Shown here piece by piece: positions 3,059 to 61,401 of a DNA stretch of 64,000 nucleotides. Numbering within the stretch: position 1 is the first letter of the stretch; each line of letters starts with the position of its first letter. This DNA is from a virus, in IMG/VR virus record IMGVR_UViG_3300032289_001838, positions 17,590 through 81,589 of that record; one strand, given 5' to 3'. The position numbers and the translations under genes are program-made. The notes under the pieces are model-generated. The model was not told where the DNA came from. It saw only the letters and a program-made list of their open reading frames with translations, and searched no databases.

Positions 3059-3081
3059 ATATTATTTTAATATATAAGTAT

Positions 3082-4275
3082 TTACAACAACCAAGTTAAA
3101 CTTTCTTTTTTATCGTTTACCGTAAAATCCATCGTCTTGTGATGGTCAGCAACACGACTCACATCCTTTTGAACGGTAACAGGACTTGTTACTTTAGATA
3201 TTTTAGAAATCATTGCTTTGTTATAAGCTATTTGATCATTTCTAAGTCTCAATGCGGTTTCACGAACCCACAAACCAATACCCATAGACATTACCAAGTC
3301 ATCGTTATAACCTCTCATCGCTTCTGCTTTAGGTCCGTTCCATATAAATACATTTAATTCCTCAAACAATCTTTTAGACTTCATAATCACTTGTTTTTGT
3401 CTAAAAAATAACTCTAAATTACTTACTATTAACGGTCTATTTTTACTGGTTGTAGTAAATCCAGCTACTAATTTTTTATCTTGTGTATTTAACTTATTAC
3501 TATACGACTTCTCCACATCTACAATGGTAAGATCTGTTGCACTATAAAATGTATTTTGATAATCTCTATCTATTATCTGTTGAAGTGTTCCCCAACCTAC
3601 GTTATTATTTTCTACAACCAATAAAGCATTGTTATATTCGGTTGCAACAGTCACCAATAAATTACCATAATCTTTGGTTGTTAGTTGACCTCTATATTCA
3701 GCAACTTGTTCCATCGTCTCAATATCGATAACATGAAATGCACTAAAATCTCCACCATCTCCTCTTGCACAGTCTGCTGTTAATAGATAATTTTTACTAT
3801 AATTAGGATAATCCCATATCCATAAATCTTGATTATTACCACGCTTTTCTACGGGATCTTTTATATAGGTCTGTTTATAAAACTCAAGAACATCTACACT
3901 CACAACTTGATTACCTGATGTACTAAAATCACAATTATGTGAAACAATTCCGTCTACATTAAAAACATTACCGCCGGAGACGTTTACTATATCATATAAA
4001 TCAATGGGATTTTCGAATTTTTCTATCGTTATGACAACTACATCTACACCATTTGCTCCCGATATTTTTGATCCGATTTTGATATCGTGAGATCGCAGTA
4101 CTGAATTTTTATATATAAAAGGATGATTGTCCGAACATTTTATTATTTTGCCATTACTCAATAATATTTTATAGTAACAATCCTTTTTTATTTTTCTGAT
4201 TCCAAAAAAATCTTGGTAACCTGTTGGAGTCAAAATTTGAAACTTAGTATTTAGTTTAACATTTGAATCGATCAT
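3082..4275 (-). CDS. terL: terminase large subunit C-terminal (nuclease) part, fused to split-intein C fragment
   Basis: First 114 aa are intein-like (block B SDNHPF, end VSHN/C); then RNase H-like TerL nuclease (TADCARGDGGDFS, VVENN, DDLVMS). Confidence 0.93.
   Translation of the reverse strand: MIDSNVKLNTKFQILTPTGYQDFFGIRKIKKDCYYKILLSNGKIIKCSDNHPFIYKNSVLRSHDIKIGSKISGANGVDVVVITIEKFENPIDLYDIVNVSGGNVFNVDGIVSHNCDFSTSGNQVVSVDVLEFYKQTYIKDPVEKRGNNQDLWIWDYPNYSKNYLLTADCARGDGGDFSAFHVIDIETMEQVAEYRGQLTTKDYGNLLVTVATEYNNALLVVENNNVGWGTLQQIIDRDYQNTFYSATDLTIVDVEKSYSNKLNTQDKKLVAGFTTTSKNRPLIVSNLELFFRQKQVIMKSKRLFEELNVFIWNGPKAEAMRGYNDDLVMSMGIGLWVRETALRLRNDQIAYNKAMISKISKVTSPVTVQKDVSRVADHHKTMDFTVNDKKESLTWLL
3934..4275 (-). 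other. split intein C fragment (IntC, 114 aa)
   Basis: LYDIVNV (block F), GIVSHN followed by Cys+1 at 3931-3933. Confidence 0.92.
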
Positions 4276-15602: not shown

Positions 15603-17691
15603 TTTTTTCTTTAATCATTTCAAATGTTATCATTGATGTACATTCAAAATCTTTATTTCTTGGACACCAATCCCATTTTTTAGCATCAAATTTAAAATTA
15701 ATATCATTCCAGCAACTATTACACACGGATTTATTGTGTACTCTATAAGGTGTGTAAAATTCAGACTTTGGATCTGAAAATCCAGAAATTAAAACTACTG
15801 GTTTCTCAACCATCCAGGCTAACCAAGATAAGCCAGACCCTAATCCAATAAAGAAATCGCAAAAATATAAATCATTTATTCGTTCAGATAGAGGAAAATC
15901 TCCAGTTTTATTTATACTACCAACAGGTATTTCGTTATGATAACCATTGTTTCCTATATTACTAATTTTATCAATTGATACAACGTCGTATCCAATTGAT
16001 TGTAGATATGTCACCACTTTATTCCACCCATCTGGATTGTTCCAAAATTTAGCTTGAGCAGTTGACAGAGATCCAATGCAAACGTATTTTTTATTAAAAT
16101 TGTTTTTTAACTGTGTTGGTTTTAAATATTTGGGTTTTGTTTCGATATAATCAATGCCTAATATTTCTGCGGACATTTGTTGTAAACTTTGAGTTCGCCA
16201 ATCTGTTGGGGCCGAAGATCTGTCATCTACGTCGAAACATCCAATTCTATAAGAAGCAAAGTATTCATCATTTGAAATATGATTGTAATTAAAAAAGTTT
16301 ATATTTGGATATTCTGTACAAAACAATTCTTTTAATGGTGAGTAGAAGTCTACGATACATTTATGTTTCTTCTGAAATAGATCAACATATGGAAGCCAAG
16401 CGATGCAATCGCCTAAAGCGCCTGACTCATTTACAATTTTTACTCTTTTTCCTGTTAGATTAAAATTATAAATTGTATAACTATTGGTTTCTAAATCTTC
16501 CACTTCAATTCTCCAATTAATAAAATATTTAATACTTGGCTTAGCCCACATACCACTTGAAAGTGTTGTTTCATAAATCAACGTATTGTTTTTATTATTA
16601 ATAAACTTTACTTTATATTTTTTTGAATCGGATCCAAAAATCTCAACTTTACATCCATCTTTATAATCTATAATTACGTTATTCGTAATTTCTCTGGGAG
16701 ATATGTGTTTAATAGGAGTTTCGTTATAAATTTTTAAAAGTTGATCTTTCATAGTCATTTGAACATTATACGAAGGTAATAAATTTTTTTCAACAATTTT
16801 ATTCCAATCTTTTTCATGTGCAGTTTTCAATGCGTTATTTTTAAATTCAATATAATTATCAATTACGTGGTTAATTCCTTCAACTATAACATTCGCATCA
16901 CGTGTTATTCTGTATAATCCGTTTAATTGATTATTATCTTCAAATGTGCCTACGATTGGTAATCCACATGACAATGATTCTAATAAAGTTAAATTTGGAT
17001 GTCCCGCCTCGGAAATTGAGGGATGAAGAAAAATCGTATGGTTTTTATAAACATCAACCAATTCTGATTCTGTTAGATTATACAATATTGTCAATTTATC
17101 ATAATCCACATGGTATGTTTCAAAAAAGTGTTTATTATTAAATGGACCAGCAATGGTAATAGGTAAATTGAGTTTTTTTGCTGCTTCTATAGCATAAGAA
17201 AATCCTTTTCTATCTTCAGCTTGATTATGAATAAATCCATTGTTAGCTACACAGAGAAGTCGATGTTGTAAAATTTCATTATTAGATGGAGTAAACATTT
17301 GAGTATTAACTCCATGACTTAGATATTCTACGTTAGGCAAGTCAAAATATTCTACCAAATATTTAGCGGGGACAAATGTTTTTATAGAATGTTGTGCGGC
17401 GAATCTGTTATTTTTATATACCTGAGACTCTTTTCCGTATATGTAGGCATGATGATCGTGAAAAGAAAAGTAATACGGGATTTTTTTATTATACAACTCT
17501 AGTGCTAAATTAGCTAAATGAACATGTACAATGTCATATTTTTTGGGATCAATATCATTTAGAAATAAAACATCACATTCGTGTCCCAGTTTTTCTGAAG
17601 AACATTTATATTCCCATATTATTTTCTCAACAGCTCCCCATCCATTTGGTGGAATTGGATGTATACCTGTGTGTACCTGTACGATTTTCAT
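15559..17691 (-). CDS. GT4 glycosyltransferase fused to Aah/TibC-like heptosyltransferase domain
   Basis: IPPNGWGAVE, RKG, EAGHPNLTLLES; C-half ALGDCIAW, FIGLGSGLSWLAW, CNSCWND...WCP...EC. Confidence 0.85.
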   Translation of the reverse strand: MKIVQVHTGIHPIPPNGWGAVEKIIWEYKCSSEKLGHECDVLFLNDIDPKKYDIVHVHLANLALELYNKKIPYYFSFHDHHAYIYGKESQVYKNNRFAAQHSIKTFVPAKYLVEYFDLPNVEYLSHGVNTQMFTPSNNEILQHRLLCVANNGFIHNQAEDRKGFSYAIEAAKKLNLPITIAGPFNNKHFFETYHVDYDKLTILYNLTESELVDVYKNHTIFLHPSISEAGHPNLTLLESLSCGLPIVGTFEDNNQLNGLYRITRDANVIVEGINHVIDNYIEFKNNALKTAHEKDWNKIVEKNLLPSYNVQMTMKDQLLKIYNETPIKHISPREITNNVIIDYKDGCKVEIFGSDSKKYKVKFINNKNNTLIYETTLSSGMWAKPSIKYFINWRIEVEDLETNSYTIYNFNLTGKRVKIVNESGALGDCIAWLPYVDLFQKKHKCIVDFYSPLKELFCTEYPNINFFNYNHISNDEYFASYRIGCFDVDDRSSAPTDWRTQSLQQMSAEILGIDYIETKPKYLKPTQLKNNFNKKYVCIGSLSTAQAKFWNNPDGWNKVVTYLQSIGYDVVSIDKISNIGNNGYHNEIPVGSINKTGDFPLSERINDLYFCDFFIGLGSGLSWLAWMVEKPVVLISGFSDPKSEFYTPYRVHNKSVCNSCWNDINFKFDAKKWDWCPRNKDFECTSMITFEMIKEKIDKCISDLKNDHSN

Positions 17692-54928: not shown

Positions 54929-55315
54929 TGGTGGAGATGGCGGGGAGTCGCACCCCGCGTCCATAAAAAATTATTACTGCCAGACTACACGCTTATATAT
55001 TTTAAATTGTTAGAGAATAATAATGAAAAATATCTAAAAATATTACCCTTAAGATTTACTAATATCTCGACCATTTACGCAAATCAAATATTTGGTCCAG
55101 TCCAATAATTTACACCCAACACGAATATCAGACTTCATCGTATTGAATGTGCAACAACTTAGGCTGCAAGGGCTACAACGTCATCGTAAGAGAAGTCATA
55201 GCTAACTACGTTATCTTCAGCAGTTAATGTTTTGATAGGTGTATTAAAGAGGCCAACTATCATCCTCTACGTGCCTAACAATAGATATTTATCTATGTCG
55301 AAACTACGCATCCCC
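54929..55315 (-). ncRNA. ssrA: tmRNA
   Basis: 5' GGGGATG...TTCGAC; 3' T-arm and CATCTCC-ACCA with G3:U; tag ORF 55221..55159 AEDNVVSYDFSYDDVVALAA*. Confidence 0.95.
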
Positions 55316-57474: not shown

Positions 57475-57511
57475 TGGAGCGGGTAGCCGGAATCGAACCG
57501 GCACATCACTT
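57475..57511 (-). pseudogene. orphan 3' half of a tRNA-Gly-like gene
   Basis: AAGTGAT-GT-GCCGG-TTCGATT-CCGGC-TACCCGC-T-CCA; no matching 5' half adjacent. Confidence 0.8.
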
Positions 57512-58363
57512 CACATATAAGTATGTAAAATTTTTCCCATATTTATCTTTTACATACTTTAAAATTTCTTTTAATTCCAATTTGTGAAAAACTTTTAATT
57601 TGTGTGGAAATTGTAATTGTTTTGCGTCAAATTGTTTTGAATGATATCCTTTTATTTCAATATAAACGTCGTCTATTTTAAAATCCGGATAATATTTTTT
57701 TATTGTTCCGTTATACGTATATTCAAAACTATCTGTATTTCGTTTAAATTGTACACCGTGTTCTAAATTATATATTACCCACGCCAATTCCCAACTACTA
57801 CCGCAAAAATATCCTTTATACCAACCTCTTTTACTAGTCCCACTATTTATACGATATCCACCAAATCCTTTATTTTTAAGATAATCTGTTTTTTTAATCC
57901 ACTCATTTTTACATTGTCGAGAACAACAATTTCTATTCTTTAAAGATGGTATCACTTCAAATTCTATTTTACAAGTCTCACATTCTTTTTTAATTTTTTC
58001 TTTTCTATTCCAACCACAAAATTTAGAATTGTTCTTTGCCAACTTAGCTAATCTTTTTTTATCATCGTCAGACCATTTACAATGGCCTCCATTTTTTTGA
58101 GTATAAATCGCAGTACATTTTACAGAACAATATTTATTTTTATTTTTATTTTCAAAATCAATTATATTCTCACAATTTATACATTTTTTTGGACTGCTAT
58201 AATAATCTGTTTTTCTTTTTTCTAAATATATTTTTTTTAATTGTGTATTAAAAAATATTGAACATTTATTAGAACAAAAATGATTGTTAGTTCTTTTTAT
58301 TTCACTTTCGTATTTGACAAACTCAACATTACAGATTTTACAATTTACTAGTATCTTACTCAT
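57506..58363 (-). CDS. homing endonuclease-like protein (Zn-finger repeats plus PD-(D/E)xK domain), copy 1
   Basis: Repeated CxxC...(F/Y)CSxxC; SSWE, YYPDF, YIEIKGY; start taken at MSKILVNC. Confidence 0.8.
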   Translation of the reverse strand: MSKILVNCKICNVEFVKYESEIKRTNNHFCSNKCSIFFNTQLKKIYLEKRKTDYYSSPKKCINCENIIDFENKNKNKYCSVKCTAIYTQKNGGHCKWSDDDKKRLAKLAKNNSKFCGWNRKEKIKKECETCKIEFEVIPSLKNRNCCSRQCKNEWIKKTDYLKNKGFGGYRINSGTSKRGWYKGYFCGSSWELAWVIYNLEHGVQFKRNTDSFEYTYNGTIKKYYPDFKIDDVYIEIKGYHSKQFDAKQLQFPHKLKVFHKLELKEILKYVKDKYGKNFTYLYVK

Positions 58364-58420
58364 ACTAATAAATAGTAACATTCGGAGCAAAAAGTGATCT
58401 TTGATTACGCAAAATTAAGA

Positions 58421-58496
58421 TGGAGCACTAGGTCGGGTACGATCCGACAACCTTATCGTTGGCAACGATACGCTCTACCAATTGAGCTACTAGTGC
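58421..58496 (-). tRNA. tRNA-Gly(GCC)
   Basis: Cloverleaf, anticodon loop TTGCCAA, U73, CCA; atypical T-loop ATCGTAC. Confidence 0.9.
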
Positions 58497-58604
58497 GTTA
58501 AAATTAATCAACATAGAACCTACATTTTATATCACTTTTTGCATGAAATTATAAAATTTCATCCCATTGACAACCATCGTGGAGGTTGTGATATTTCTGT
58601 CAAC

Positions 58605-58677
58605 TGGAGCAGATGGGAGTTGAACCCACAATCTTCACTTTGCAAAAGTGGTGCATTGCCAATTATGCTACTGCCCC
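58605..58677 (-). tRNA. tRNA-Ala(TGC)
   Basis: GGGGCAG/CTGCTCC with G3:U70, loop TTTGCAA; CCA not encoded. Confidence 0.88.
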
Positions 58678-58685
58678 ATTTAAAA

Positions 58686-58714
58686 ATCTTACACCAATAT
58701 ATAATATAAGTCAA
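58686..58714 (-). promoter_or_regulatory. sigma70-like promoter inside tRNA array
   Basis: TTGACT-17 nt-TAAGAT. Confidence 0.55.
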
Positions 58715-58731
58715 ATCAAAAAATAAAAAAT

Positions 58732-58908
58732 TGGATGACCGTGACTTGCGAATATACGAGGATTTCACTAAGCGTTCCATATTTCAATCAAGTCCAACGG
58801 CACTGTGCGCACAGAAACCATAAACTTAAATCGAATGTCTATCTCGTCAACTTCAGTCTCATCTACCTCCTAATGGCAGAGTGCTATAATTCTATACACC
58901 AACGATCA
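58732..58908 (-). ncRNA. tRNA-like RNA with T-arm replaced by a long hairpin (unknown class)
   Basis: Acceptor TGATCGT/ACGGTCA-T-CCA, D stem GTGT/GCAC, anticodon arm CTGCC-ATTAGGA-GGTAG, then about 120-nt irregular hairpin. Confidence 0.7.
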
Positions 58909-58923
58909 AATCTAAAACTTATC

Positions 58924-59035
58924 CCAGACACCTTGGCGGTTTTATGGGCATATTTAACCCACAGATTATTAGCCGAACACAGCCGTTGGTTATTGTTTCG
59001 GACCTAGCCAAGTTCAAACCTCTACCAATGTCTGA
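58924..59035 (-). ncRNA. candidate structured ncRNA
   Basis: Nested stems TCAGACAT/GTGTCTGG, CTTGGC/GCCAAG, CCGAA/TTCGG, GTGGGT/GCCCAT. Confidence 0.5.
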
Positions 59036-59044
59036 TATATAAAA

Positions 59045-59120
59045 TGGTCGGAATGACAGGACTCGCACCTGCAACCTCCTAGCTCCAAACCAGGCCGTCT
59101 ACTATTGACATTACATTCCG
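59045..59120 (-). tRNA. tRNA-Pro(TGG)
   Basis: CGGAATG/CATTCCG-A-CCA, loop TTTGGAG; T-loop TGCGAGT. Confidence 0.88.
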
Positions 59121-59126
59121 AATAAA

Positions 59127-59230
59127 TTGTTGTCGGTGTTTGATGAATGGATCTTTCGATCACTAGTTCTTACTCTTGTAACTGATGATCACTCATTACA
59201 ATTTCTCTAAAATTACACCCTTAACCGACA
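59127..59230 (-). ncRNA. candidate structured ncRNA
   Basis: Closing 7-bp stem TGTCGGT/ACCGACA plus ACAA; inner stems ATGAGTG/CATTCAT and GATC-GAAA-GATC. Confidence 0.45.
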
Positions 59231-59239
59231 TATATAAAA

Positions 59240-59313
59240 TGGTTGGGGATGATGGAATCGAACCACCACAAGCAGATTCAAAGTCTGCCGCACTACCATT
59301 ATGCAAATCCCCA
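59240..59313 (-). tRNA. tRNA-Gln(TTG)
   Basis: TGGGGAT/ATCCCCA, loop CTTTGAA, TTCGATT, CCA. Confidence 0.92.
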
Positions 59314-59319
59314 GTTAAA

Positions 59320-60162
59320 TTACTTTTCATAAAGATTGATAAAATCTTTTCCGTATTTTGATGTCACATAATCAATGTACATCTTAATTTTGTGTTTGTC
59401 AATCACATTTAATTTAAATGGAAAAGAATTTATTTTTGCTTTATTTTTATTATCTAAATAACCTTTTATTTCAAAATATTCATTTGTTGATTCAAGAATA
59501 AAGTCTGGATAAAAATTATAGCTCTTGTTGTTATAAACATATGGAAATCCAGCAGTATTTCTTTTAAATTTAATATTATGTTCTAAATTGAATATAACCC
59601 AAGCTAATTCCCAACTACTATTACAATAGTATCCTTTATACCATCCTTGTTTACCTCTTCCACCTTTTTCACGATAACCTCCTCTTTTACCTTTCAAAAG
59701 TCCGTTTACTTTTACATATTCATTTCTACAATTCTGAGAGCAATATATCTGTTTTGATTTTTCTGTTTTTAAAAAATTATTATTACAATACGGACATAAT
59801 ATAGATTTACGTGTTTTTACTCTAATCTGTTTTTTTGCTAATTCAGATAATCTTTTTTTACCTTCTATATCCCATTTTTTGTGACCCCCAAACTTTTGGT
59901 TTTCAATAGCTGCACATTTTGTAGAACAAAATTTATTATTTCTTCTAAAATATTCTAAATTAGTATTACAATATCCACACTTATTTGGATTTAGATTATA
60001 TTTTTCTACTCTATATAGTTTTAATTGTGGTGAAATTGTTTTTCCATTAAACTCTACAGAACATTTATTAGAACAAAAATGATTGTTAGTTCTTTTTATT
60101 TCACTTTTATATTTTAAAAACTTAATATTACATTTTTTACAATTTACTAGTATTTTACTCAT
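59320..60162 (-). CDS. homing endonuclease-like protein (Zn-finger repeats plus PD-(D/E)xK domain), copy 2
   Basis: Paralog of 57506..58363; SSWELAWVI, FYPDF, YFEIKGY; start taken at MSKILVNC. Confidence 0.8.
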   Translation of the reverse strand: MSKILVNCKKCNIKFLKYKSEIKRTNNHFCSNKCSVEFNGKTISPQLKLYRVEKYNLNPNKCGYCNTNLEYFRRNNKFCSTKCAAIENQKFGGHKKWDIEGKKRLSELAKKQIRVKTRKSILCPYCNNNFLKTEKSKQIYCSQNCRNEYVKVNGLLKGKRGGYREKGGRGKQGWYKGYYCNSSWELAWVIFNLEHNIKFKRNTAGFPYVYNNKSYNFYPDFILESTNEYFEIKGYLDNKNKAKINSFPFKLNVIDKHKIKMYIDYVTSKYGKDFINLYEK

Positions 60163-60224
60163 ACTAATAAATAGTAATTTTGGAGCGTAAAGTAACTTTT
60201 GAATCAAAATATTTTGTTTGATTC

Positions 60225-60299
60225 TGGTGCAGTAGGAGAGAATTGAACTCTCATTTCAAGTTTGGAAGACTCACGTAATAGCCATTATACCACTACTGC
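60225..60299 (-). tRNA. tRNA-Gly(TCC)
   Basis: GCAGTAG/CTACTGC, loop CTTCCAA; discriminator A rather than U. Confidence 0.85.
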
Positions 60300-60384
60300 A
60301 TTTTAATAAATTATTAGATGTTCAGTCATCAAATATTTGATGTGTACTATGAACCACGGACAGGTAATCTAATTTCTCATAGCG

Positions 60385-60474
60385 CGGAGGCGAAGGGTGC
60401 TGCCCCCTCAGTGGCTTTTAGACCACGGCAGTTTAGCAAACTGCTGTAGAAACCTGACTATCTACGTCACCTCC
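60385..60474 (-). tRNA. tRNA-Ser(GCT)
   Basis: GGAGGTG/CGCCTCC-G, loop TTGCTAA, long variable arm; atypical T-loop GGCAGCA; no CCA. Confidence 0.85.
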
Positions 60475-60518
60475 ATAAAATCTTTTGACAAACTCCGATT
60501 TCTTCAAGGAACAATATC

Positions 60519-60547
60519 AATATATCAGTTCTCGGTTCCAATGTCAA
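60519..60547 (-). promoter_or_regulatory. sigma70-like promoter inside tRNA array
   Basis: TTGACA-17 nt-TATATT. Confidence 0.5.
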
Positions 60548-60567
60548 GTGGAGTTGTATTTAAAGAG

Positions 60568-60651
60568 CGGAAGCAACAGGAATCGAACCTGTGAGGGTTT
60601 ATGGCCCCAGCTGTTTTCAAGACAGTTTCCTCGACCTGCCGGACTACTTCC
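60568..60651 (-). tRNA. tRNA-Ser(TGA)
   Basis: GGAAGTA/TGCTTCC-G, loop CTTGAAA, long variable arm, TTCGATT. Confidence 0.87.
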
Positions 60652-60662
60652 ATAAAATAAAT

Positions 60663-60740
60663 TGGTGGACCAGGTGAGAATCGAACTCACATCAGACTGA
60701 TTGCAAACCAGTCTCGCTTAGCCTTAGAACATGCCAGCCC
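60663..60740 (-). tRNA. tRNA-Ala(TGC), second copy
   Basis: GGGCTGG/CTGGTCC-A-CCA with G3:U70, loop TTTGCAA. Confidence 0.82.
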
Positions 60741-60747
60741 ATAAATT

Positions 60748-60832
60748 TGGTAGGTGTGGTAGGATTCGAACCTACATAGGATACAATATTTTAAGTATTG
60801 CGGTTGTTCCAGTTTCCCTTATCCACACACCC
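60748..60832 (-). tRNA. tRNA-Leu(TAA)
   Basis: CAATA-CTTAAAA-TATTG, TTCGAAT, A73-CCA; enlarged D region, 8-nt variable region. Confidence 0.85.
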
Positions 60833-60839
60833 GTTAAAT

Positions 60840-60917
60840 TGGTAGTTACGACTGGATTCGAACCAGCACTATTCTATTTTTGAGATAGACGACTCCTTCC
60901 AGTTGGTCTACGTAACC
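60840..60917 (-). tRNA. tRNA-Leu(CAA)
   Basis: TCTAT-CTCAAAA-ATAGA, TTCGAAT, A73-CCA; 5-nt variable loop. Confidence 0.87.
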
Positions 60918-60925
60918 ATTGAAAT

Positions 60926-61009
60926 TGGTGGGCATAGAGGGACTTGAACCCCCACGGATTTCTCCACGAGCTTCTAAAACTCGCATGGCTGCGATTACAT
61001 CATATGCCC
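60926..61009 (-). tRNA. tRNA-Leu(TAG)
   Basis: CGAGT-TTTAGAA-GCTCG, long variable arm, TTCAAGT, CCA. Confidence 0.9.
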
Positions 61010-61019
61010 AATTAAAAGA

Positions 61020-61104
61020 TGGTCGGAGTGATAGGACTTGCACCTACAGGTCTTTCGATCCAGTTCCCAAAACTGGCCCGCCCCTATTTACGGACTACAC
61101 TCCG
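61020..61104 (-). tRNA. tRNA-Pro(TGG) with long variable arm
   Basis: CGGAGTG/CACTCCG-A-CCA, CCAGT-TTTGGGA-ACTGG, 12-nt variable arm, T-loop TGCAAGT. Confidence 0.8.
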
Positions 61105-61111
61105 ATTAAAA

Positions 61112-61187
61112 TGGTAGGTGGTATAGGATTTAAACCTATGACATTTTGCGTGTAAAGCAAATGCTCTATCAACTGAGCTAACCACCC
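61112..61187 (-). tRNA. tRNA-Val(TAC)
   Basis: TTTGC-TTTACAC-GCAAA, A73-CCA; T-loop TTTAAAT. Confidence 0.9.
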
Positions 61188-61326
61188 ATTTAAAAATTGT
61201 TATATACTTTATGTCATTATCGCCAGATGGGTTCTGTATTTCAGCATAACACCCAGTGACCGATCAAATGTTTTAACTTATGTTGGGGACATCAGATAGA
61301 GTTTCAACCCCGTTCGTTATATTTCT

Positions 61327-61354
61327 AATATACCACACCTTCTCAAATTGTCAA
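61327..61354 (-). promoter_or_regulatory. sigma70-like promoter for tRNA array
   Basis: TTGACA-16 nt-TATATT with TG upstream of the -10. Confidence 0.7.
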
Positions 61355-61359
61355 CACCT

Positions 61360-61401
61360 AAAAATCAAAAACCCGTCATTCTTTTTTTGAAGTGACGGGT
61401 T
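61360..61401 (-). terminator. intrinsic terminator upstream of tRNA array
   Basis: AACCCGTCACTTC...GAATGACGGGTT followed by TTTGATTTTT. Confidence 0.8.

Follow-up and report, generated by a model that had tools for sequence, protein, structure and literature searches.

A tRNA-shaped RNA encoded in phage tRNA arrays, with a portable module that may fold as a double T-loop

We describe here a small RNA element encoded in a stretch of viral DNA of 64,000 nucleotides (nt), positions 17,590 to 81,589 of the IMG/VR record IMGVR_UViG_3300032289_001838; this whole stretch is called the window. The element occupies window positions 58732–58908 on the minus strand and is 177 nt long, and position i of its RNA corresponds to window position 58908-(i-1). 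The source record has 81.6 kilobases (kb) and a G+C content of about 31%, and its CheckV completeness of 27% indicates that the phage probably has a size of about 300 kb; the carrier is a large freshwater phage. The element lies within an array of transfer RNA (tRNA) genes on the minus strand (58421–61187), for which ARAGORN assigns ten tRNAs, including an intact tRNA-Leu(UAG) at 60926–61009. It shares both the array and the strand with these tRNAs, and members of its family are placed likewise in relatives, as judged with ARAGORN. A U-rich spacer follows its CCA end, as is the case for the neighbouring tRNAs. The parts of the element are collected in Table 1.

Table 1. Parts of the 177-nt element, in the 5' to 3' order of its RNA, and the promoter-like site that follows it (coordinates of the window)
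Feature	Position	Strand	Remarks
Acceptor stem, 5' strand, UGAUCGU (RNA 1–7)	58902–58908	minus	pairs with 58736–58742
U8 and G9 connector	58900–58901	minus	U8 in 36/36 relatives
D arm, stem GUGU/GCAC, 11-nt loop AUAGAAUUAUA without GG	58881–58899	minus	
Anticodon-like hairpin, stem CUGCC/GGUAG, loop AUUAGGA	58863–58879	minus	
4-nt connector AUGA at the variable-loop position	58859–58862	minus	AGGA, AGAA, GGGA and others in relatives
P1, 5' strand, GACU, where the T stem belongs	58855–58858	minus	pairs with 58743–58746
J1/2, GAAGUUG	58848–58854	minus	GAACUUG, GAGUUU, AAGUUAU in distant frames
P2, 5' strand, ACGA, closing stem of the module	58844–58847	minus	covaries; pairs with 58756–58759
Module part 1, GAUAGAC (candidate first T-loop pentad AUAGA)	58837–58843	minus	
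Optional 53-nt distal hairpin (RNA 74–126), helices TTCGAT/ATTGAA to CTGT/ACAG	58783–58835	minus	
Module part 2, GGAAC, 5-nt loop, GUGAAAUCC (candidate second T-loop pentad UGAAA)	58760–58778	minus	
P2, 3' strand, UCGU	58756–58759	minus	pairs with 58844–58847
J2/1, AUAUUCGCA	58747–58755	minus	near-invariant in the family; AUUCAAA, CUUGUA, GGUUGUA in distant frames
P1, 3' strand, AGUC	58743–58746	minus	pairs with 58855–58858
Acceptor stem, 3' strand, ACGGUCA (RNA 167–173)	58736–58742	minus	pairs with 58902–58908
Discriminator U and encoded CCA (RNA 174; 175–177)	58732–58735	minus	
Sigma-70-like promoter TTGACT-17-TAAGAT, between the element and tRNA-Ala	58686–58714	minus	consensus scan

Standard detectors do not recognize the element: ARAGORN gave no call at 58732–58908, and Rfam 15 had no match there either at gathering thresholds over the whole window or at an expectation value (E) of 10 or less over 58300–61400, RF00005 included. 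The original prediction, made from the letters of the sequence, had pictured a noncoding RNA on a tRNA scaffold with a layout of no known family, which agrees with these searches, and the helices and coordinates it listed are all present on the minus strand. The ViennaRNA centroid structure of the element shows the same nesting of helices. A covariance model (R1) built from seven short forms of the family matches the element end to end on the minus strand with 108.6 bits and E 2.7e-27. In a second search, of 38 sources, R1 matched 36 relatives over their full length at E ≤ 0.001; these are 113–177 nt long and lie in phage tRNA arrays. Among the 36 are six distant frames that differ in G+C content from the window, namely L121 (55.6 bits), L089 (53.9), L055 (46.1), L066 (43.4), L098 (40.8) and L112 (24.4).

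The pairing was counted for five helices (acceptor, D, anticodon-like, GACU/AGUC and ACGAG/CUCGU), which comprise 25 base pairs (bp). Pairing holds in 98.3% of the 893 cells provided by the 36 relatives, and both-sided changes are seen at 22 of the 25 pairs; no shuffle out of 500 reached any of the five measures, and the registers slid by 1–3 columns gave 26–52% pairing. This alignment was fitted to the model and is hence tilted towards the structure, the margin being large. R1-fitted alignments misplace long inserts, and the two innermost helices (P3 and P4) were excluded from the pair counts. MAFFT misaligned the core when applied across all size classes; the first compensatory changes were already visible in plain MAFFT alignments. 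This comparison of sequences confirms, and in our view settles, that the element is a real, conserved structured RNA.

The support differs from helix to helix. In the acceptor stem, all seven pairs are paired in 100% of the cells and six change on both sides. The D arm is nearly invariant in the family, its stem being 93.1% paired with both-sided changes at three of the four pairs, and the lack of GG in its loop, pointed out previously, is borne out by the sequence. The anticodon-like stem is 98.9% paired and changes on both sides at all five pairs. In P1, all four pairs change on both sides (for example GGGU/ACCC, GGCU/GGCC and CCAG/CUGG), and P2 has the variant AUGG/CCAU within the family. 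The previously listed helix of GAA in J1/2 with UUC in J2/1 is present in the sequence and finds little support in covariation, because it is 93.5% paired versus 91.3% in shuffled alignments and changes on both sides in 3 cells. The 4-bp P1 stem stands at the T-stem position and encloses 108 nt, and neither a 5-bp T stem nor a 7-nt GTPsiCRA loop is found. The 53-nt distal hairpin is inserted between GAUAGAC-A and a 4-nt linker AUAU that precedes GGAAC. The first part of the module has the family variants GAGAGAC, GACAGAC, GA-AGAC and GAUAGAU; in the second part, the first G of GGAAC is replaceable by A or U, and GUGAAAUCC is invariant in 36/36 relatives. The discriminator, N73, is U in 32 relatives, A in 3 and G in 1, and the CCA is encoded in 34 of the 36.

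Members of the family occur in several size classes. Among loci reached via the flanking open reading frames (ORFs) of about 295 amino acids (aa), L002 holds a copy 99.4% identical to that of the window. L004 and L005 hold a 127-nt form without the middle of the rod-like hairpin, whose acceptor strands are different yet complementary, and the element is absent from the relatives L003, L014 and L015. Two exact patterns of 19–20 nt taken from the base of the rod matched 27 and 35 IMG/VR loci; these loci gave 24 distinct family sequences, with classes of 122–127, 147–148, 171–174 and 176–177 nt. The distal 53 nt are absent from the 113–130-nt forms, and their position is taken by unrelated hairpins in L104, in L120 and in the 147/148- and 171/174-nt forms. 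The long distal hairpin of the window copy is a peripheral, optional expansion. The rod of about 120 nt that had been described as replacing the T arm is thus present in the window copy, with a distal 53 nt that the family can dispense with, and the idea of a carrier for a hairpin effector does not hold as it was written, because the long hairpin is dispensable and the near-invariant part is the module at its base plus the D arm. Across the family U8, N73-CCA, the D arm, the 4-bp stem and the joining strands GAAGUUG and AUAUUCGCA are kept, and the module is conserved most. When the array was searched against INPHARED with blastn, only tRNA-sized or ORF fragments were matched, the best being Lak phages over the 295-aa ORF, and none of the matches spans the element.

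The element is not a decoding tRNA, because both the length and the sequence of its anticodon-like loop vary. The loop has 5 nt in 4, 6 nt in 9, 7 nt in 13 and 8 nt in 10 of the 36 relatives, with 21 different sequences. The 7-nt loop with a nominal TAG anticodon, reported for the window copy, can indeed be seen there; it is peculiar to the subtype of the window, one member of which has UGG. Features of a canonical tRNA that are present are the 7-bp acceptor, U8, N73 and the 3' CCA, and those that are absent are a conserved decoding loop, a T arm, GG in the D loop and recognition by detectors. The diversity of the loop also speaks against the earlier suggestion of a decoy for anticodon nucleases, which was rejected, and a role like that of 6S RNA, proposed at the same time, is not supported. 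The alignments show the element to be a member of a widespread, phage-encoded class of tRNA-shaped, non-decoding RNAs that has no entry in Rfam 15. In this class the top half of a tRNA is kept and the anticodon arm has decayed to a hairpin with a variable loop, and the T loop is interrupted by a closing stem bearing the near-invariant G-AUAGA-C ... GGAAC ... G-UGAAA-UCC.

The module can be written as GAUAGAC-(3–8 nt or a hairpin)-GGAAC-(3–9 nt)-GUGAAAUCC with a covarying closing stem. The first sign that it can stand free of the family was an R1 match in L033, where the closing stem is UUGUU/AACAA instead of ACGA/UCGU. The pattern GATAGAC-N3-33-GGAAC-N3-9-GTGAAATCC matches 76 viral loci in IMG/VR, and many of its carriers are unrelated phages. 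At least four of the five closing pairs are formed in 33 of 63 distinct viral copies, versus about 7% computed by chance. In 18 diverse copies, the innermost variable closing pair is A-U in 7, G-C in 6, U-A in 5 and unpaired in none, a score matched by 0/500 shuffles. The module is near-invariant despite a spread of G+C content from 0.29 in L033 through 0.42 in the window to 0.59 in L072.

We have found the module in three settings. The first is that of other tRNA-shaped frames with a 7-bp acceptor and NCCA, confirmed by R1 in L055, L066, L089, L098, L112 and L121; the frames of L058 and L067 come from an acceptor-stem script only, which pairs 73 of 77 copies, mostly by chance, and only copies with NCCA and an R1 match were used. 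In the second setting, a module hairpin stands about 20–30 nt past a tRNA or tRNA-like gene (L057, L119, L096, L080, L082 and L095). The genes in question in L057 (728–799), L119 (2537–2604) and L096 (5749–5823) are tRNA-like, with a normal T arm and an aberrant anticodon loop, for which ARAGORN finds only two anticodon letters and hence assigns no anticodon. A tRNA-like gene trailed by a module hairpin represents a second architecture, in which the module is linked to a tRNA-like RNA that does not decode. In the third setting, the module lies about 13–22 nt beyond the end of the Rfam GOLLD model (L033, L064 and L068); L081 and L092 have the conserved upstream block of L033 according to sequence reading, the GOLLD scan having covered other loci. 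GOLLD RNAs of 194–212 bits were located in L033 (2255–2722), L064 (1359–1821), L068 (1883–2311) and L083 (578–1065), and that of L033 contains an embedded tRNA. The module hairpin may be an unmodelled 3' element of GOLLD. Rfam, searched at gathering thresholds in 16 module-bearing loci, gave no family over the module.

The same pattern was searched in bacterial and archaeal genomes amounting to 596 gigabases, which gave 35 matches versus about 59 estimated by chance. At least four of the five closing pairs are formed in only 5 of these 35, and most of the matches lie inside apparently coding sequence. A few look real by eye (L127, L131, L134, L138, L146, L147 and L152), and these are on short phage-like contigs and have closing stems or acceptor frames; L138 is the same contig as the viral L058. 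Because the cellular matches are about as many as chance gives and the real-looking ones are in phage-like contigs, the module is a phage feature. As a separate observation, the viral contig of L059, of 264,912 bases, has a full-length bacterial class A RNase P RNA within its tRNA array (3063–3440, minus strand; 170.3 bits, model positions 1–367), and a module copy at 3814–3849 lies a few hundred bases from it.

Hints of expression come from public sequencing runs, 24 of which hold parts of the 931-nt region 58400–59330; 20 are recorded as RNA, mostly riverine or freshwater metatranscriptomes. Contigs were aligned from four of these runs, and parts of the window without contig cover give no evidence either way. 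Two riverine metatranscriptomes from different studies have short-form relatives, in which a joint from 58779 to 58834 skips 54 nt, with word depths of 52 and 6.8. A contig from a freshwater run skips the whole element (58729 to 58925), which matches its presence and absence in genomes. We take the contigs as a hint that relatives of the element are expressed. In the run X2 we also observed a 155-nt contig of a short-form relative, whose first and last 30 nt are identical and in which 58910 is connected to 58736 via three other letters. Such a contig is expected from a 125-nt circle or from an exact tandem repeat in a k=31 graph, and the junction was found in none of the genomic loci fetched.

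We next consider how such an RNA might work. It would be transcribed with the tRNAs, its 5' end would be cut by RNase P and its 3' end by the tRNA 3'-end machinery, and the processed element would persist as a stable small RNA. The conserved 7-bp acceptor, U8 (36/36) and NCCA (34/36) fit maturation by tRNA-processing enzymes. The module would be the working part, composed of two interlocked T-loops, one formed by the pentad A(U/G/C)AGA of the 5' bulge and the other by UGAAA at the 3' side of a short apical hairpin. It would thus present a flat stacking platform of the kind that docks the tRNA elbow in RNase P, the L1 stalk and T-box Stem I. This platform could either replace the missing D-loop/T-loop elbow, so that machinery reading the elbow accepts the RNA, or stack on the elbows of real tRNAs, and the D loop would have no GG because the module replaces the elbow. 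Taken as a whole, this explanation of a tRNA-shaped non-decoding RNA with the module as its double T-loop working part seems to us slightly better than an even bet. The fold of the module as a double T-loop, assessed by itself, is tentative and somewhat short of even, and the gripping of tRNAs by the module is a doubtful, speculative part of the proposal.

The argument for the fold comes from known double T-loops. Lehmann (2013, PMC3664808) gives their invariant core as AG..A followed by UG..A, and describes the docking of the tRNA elbow by a double T-loop in RNase P, the L1 stalk and T-box Stem I. Our sequence check found AGGAUA at 2114–2119 and UGAAA at 2167–2171 of Escherichia coli 23S ribosomal RNA (rRNA), and the order AGAGA, P12, G-UGAAA in E. 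coli M1 RNA. In the T-box consensus of Rfam, an AGAGA bulge is followed by a stem of 6 bp and then by a loop that ends in G-UGaaA, and two members of our family read GAGAGAC, which contains AGAGA. The module is similar to RNase P J11/12-J12/13, the 23S L1 stalk and the T-box Stem I apex in the order of the candidate pentads, A.AGA or AG..A and then UGAAA, with the first pentad in a 5' bulge and the second after a G at the 3' side of a loop. It is similar to RNase P and the L1 stalk also in the optional hairpin between the pentads, comparable to P12 and H78, and it shares with the known double T-loops a tRNA-related setting. It differs from them in that the stem between the pentads has about 2 bp and in that position 2 of the first pentad is mostly U, not G. 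Furthermore, the phage module lies inside a tRNA-shaped RNA, whereas the known ones belong to tRNA-binding RNAs. Under a more ambitious form of this proposal, which we consider unlikely though worth stating, the module would be a fourth natural class of tRNA-elbow-docking double T-loop, portable on three chassis (the tRNA-shaped RNA, the tRNA-trailing hairpin and the GOLLD 3' end), and would grip tRNAs in infection, for example so as to chaperone, sequester or load them, possibly onto GOLLD cages.

Several observations weigh against the double T-loop. A covariance model of the module (R2), searched against E. coli 23S rRNA and rnpB, had no match at the L1 stalk or the M1 double T-loop, the best one (E 3.3) being elsewhere, and among six Thermoactinomyces T-box leaders it matched none, again with its best score (E 0.099) elsewhere. 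Because R2 detects no similarity, the resemblance rests on the two pentads and the topology. The first pentad is ambiguous, since AUAGA is without its U in L044 and L051, and the alternative first pentad, AGAC plus one nucleotide, has A at the fifth place in 24/63 viral copies only. A plain secondary structure fits equally, with GGA/UCC and AC/GU pairs and a GAAA bulge, as in R1. The acceptor, P1, P1b and P2 together exceed the 12 bp of a tRNA minihelix, and the platform may therefore sit off the position of a tRNA elbow. The folding energy of the element is ordinary: the minimum free energy is -43.8 kcal/mol versus -42.1 +/- 3.9 kcal/mol for shuffled sequences (z -0.42), and 59 of the 200 shuffled sequences were equally or more stable. 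Being no better than that of shuffles, the energy cannot decide whether the element is real. As for expression, the metatranscriptome contigs show neither RNA ends nor strand, and RNA libraries may contain DNA.

Among the other functions to be considered, the one that survives best, at a rather low probability, is that a dedicated protein of the phage or the host binds the module, with the tRNA frame as a natural 'tRNA scaffold' for delivery and stability and the T-loop-like pentads as a coincidence. Near-invariance across very different G+C contents is typical of protein or tertiary recognition sites, and the freely varying closing stem and the portability between three chassis also suit such a site. 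On the other hand, no conserved neighbouring protein gene was seen, though no systematic test was made, the ORFs of about 295 aa come and go independently and have no Pfam match, and such a motif could equally serve the stacking of RNA on RNA.

Somewhat less probable again is a decoy or sponge for host factors that read the top half of a tRNA (acceptor end, CCA and elbow), such as defence toxins modifying or cleaving the acceptor end, the host RNase P or the CCA-adding enzyme; the module would then stabilize the fold or be the recognized handle. The conserved parts are exactly the top half and NCCA while the anticodon end varies freely, the RNA is present in metatranscriptome contigs, and counter-defence tRNAs are well known to be encoded in phage tRNA arrays. 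This explanation is weakened by the lack of a linked defence or toxin gene in any locus looked at, and by the variation of N73 between families (U, A and G), which is against a single N73-reading enzyme. The module is also found behind tRNAs and GOLLD, where it has no acceptor frame and where a decoy of the tRNA top half would be pointless.

It is improbable that the element is a cis-acting signal for processing or terminating the transcript of the tRNA operon instead of a free-standing RNA. A U-rich tract and a promoter-like site conserved in relatives follow the element, and module hairpins often trail tRNAs, as such a signal might; however, a terminator or cleavage site needs no 7-bp acceptor, U8, D arm and NCCA, all of which are kept via compensatory change, and the scan of the element region gave no terminator-like site on the minus strand. 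Lastly, a decaying tRNA-Leu(UAG) pseudogene with a T-arm insertion, or an intron-bearing tRNA spliced to a normal one, might be suggested by the loop AUUAGGA of the window copy with its U33, R37 and nominal anticodon UAG and by the intact tRNA-Leu(UAG) of the same array, and is hardly credible: it is contradicted by the compensatory changes in all five helices across the 36 relatives and by the near-invariant core of the insert, the loop has 5, 6 or 8 nt in 23/36 relatives, the tRNA detectors make no call, and removal of P2 and the module gives no ordinary tRNA, leaving a 4-bp stem with a 16-nt loop and no T arm.

We return to the tRNA-shaped RNA with a possible double T-loop and compare it with known systems. 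Since the work on T4, phage tRNA clusters have been known to encode extra small RNAs, and the roles of T4 species 1 and 2 are still unexplained according to a review (Uzan and Miller 2010, PMC3014915). These two RNAs (rnaC, 139 nt, and rnaD, 119 nt) are likewise small non-tRNA RNAs encoded in a phage tRNA cluster on the tRNA strand, and in the T4 annotation they adjoin a homing-endonuclease gene. R2 had no match to rnaC or rnaD on the RNA strand, the only overlapping match being on the opposite strand with E 2.0. In rnaC an ordinary T arm (CCGGGUUCGAAUCCCGG) is kept before the 3' end, whereas the T loop of our element is rebuilt. We have rejected a kinship with rnaC and rnaD because both are without the module and rnaC has an ordinary T arm.

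Transfer-messenger RNA (tmRNA) and the bacterial and phage Y RNAs (YrlA) likewise do not decode, retain the acceptor/T-arm half of a tRNA and are acted on by tRNA enzymes; some of them are encoded by phages near tRNAs. In tmRNA and YrlA, the canonical T arm is kept and the D stem or the anticodon arm is lost. The element has the opposite pattern, its D arm being kept and its T loop rebuilt, and an identity as tmRNA or Y RNA was discarded because Rfam gave no such match at 58732–58908 at E ≤ 10. GOLLD RNA (RF02032) is found in the same kind of place, namely phage tRNA islands; the element itself has no similarity to GOLLD, and the module lies outside the Rfam GOLLD model. The available part of a preprint on the cryo-electron microscopy of GOLLD (10.1101/2024.12.08.627333) does not mention the module. 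A search of full-text literature, with supplementary motif lists outside its range, found no description of the RNA or the module.

The closest known kind is therefore that of the unexplained small RNAs of phage tRNA clusters (T4 rnaC and rnaD) together with tRNA-like domains in general. The present analysis contributes the distant frames of the tRNA-shaped family, the portable module in three settings, its restriction to phages and the proposal of a double T-loop along with the negative searches that bear on it. The family provides large, covarying and widely distributed material for the old problem of phage small RNAs. Its minimal form of 113–127 nt is suitable for structural work, and the candidate active site is sharply defined within about 30 nt. 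Should the double T-loop prove true, phages would have taken over, or evolved anew, the device with which cells hold the tRNA elbow. The tRNA-shaped RNAs, tRNA trailers and GOLLD would then be linked in one mechanism, with a bearing on how large phages manage the tRNA pool. At the least, Rfam 15 has no entry for either the family or the module, and the annotation of large phages will miss them or label them wrongly as odd tRNAs.

Other features of the array were also recorded. Rfam gives two minus-strand tRNAs that ARAGORN misses, at 59048–59120 (47.5 bits) and 60751–60832 (44.3 bits). A true tmRNA is located at 54929–55315 (Rfam, 109.7 bits), and the 'tmRNA' that ARAGORN reports at 60663–61079 is a false call spanning several tRNAs. 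Two paralogous ORFs of about 295 aa lie among the tRNAs on the minus strand (57506–58390 and 59320–60207), with 68% nucleotide identity and CxxC motifs; Pfam gave no family for four flanking ORFs. Across the loci of relatives, the presence and absence of the two ORFs is independent of the element, and their sites are occupied, empty or filled by a different ORF, a pattern which suggests mobile genes of the endonuclease type. The promoter-like site of Table 1 is one of 4 sites in a consensus scan of the region that expects 3.8, and is not significant alone. The TTGAC..TAAGAT block is kept ahead of tRNA-Ala in L003, L004, L014 and L015, and this conservation suggests an internal promoter of the array.

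Directly upstream of the element on the minus strand is a unit of about 115 nt (58919–59040), where the word depth of the metatranscriptome contigs is greatest for the stretch, at up to 205 in X1, 46.5 in X2 and 129 in X8. Relatives hold another conserved block of about 100 nt in its place, L004 7177–7270 being equivalent to L014 443–549 and L015 5626–5723. The units at this place are probably further small RNAs of the array, and in L052 both a unit of the 58919–59040 type and the alternative block of about 100 nt are present.

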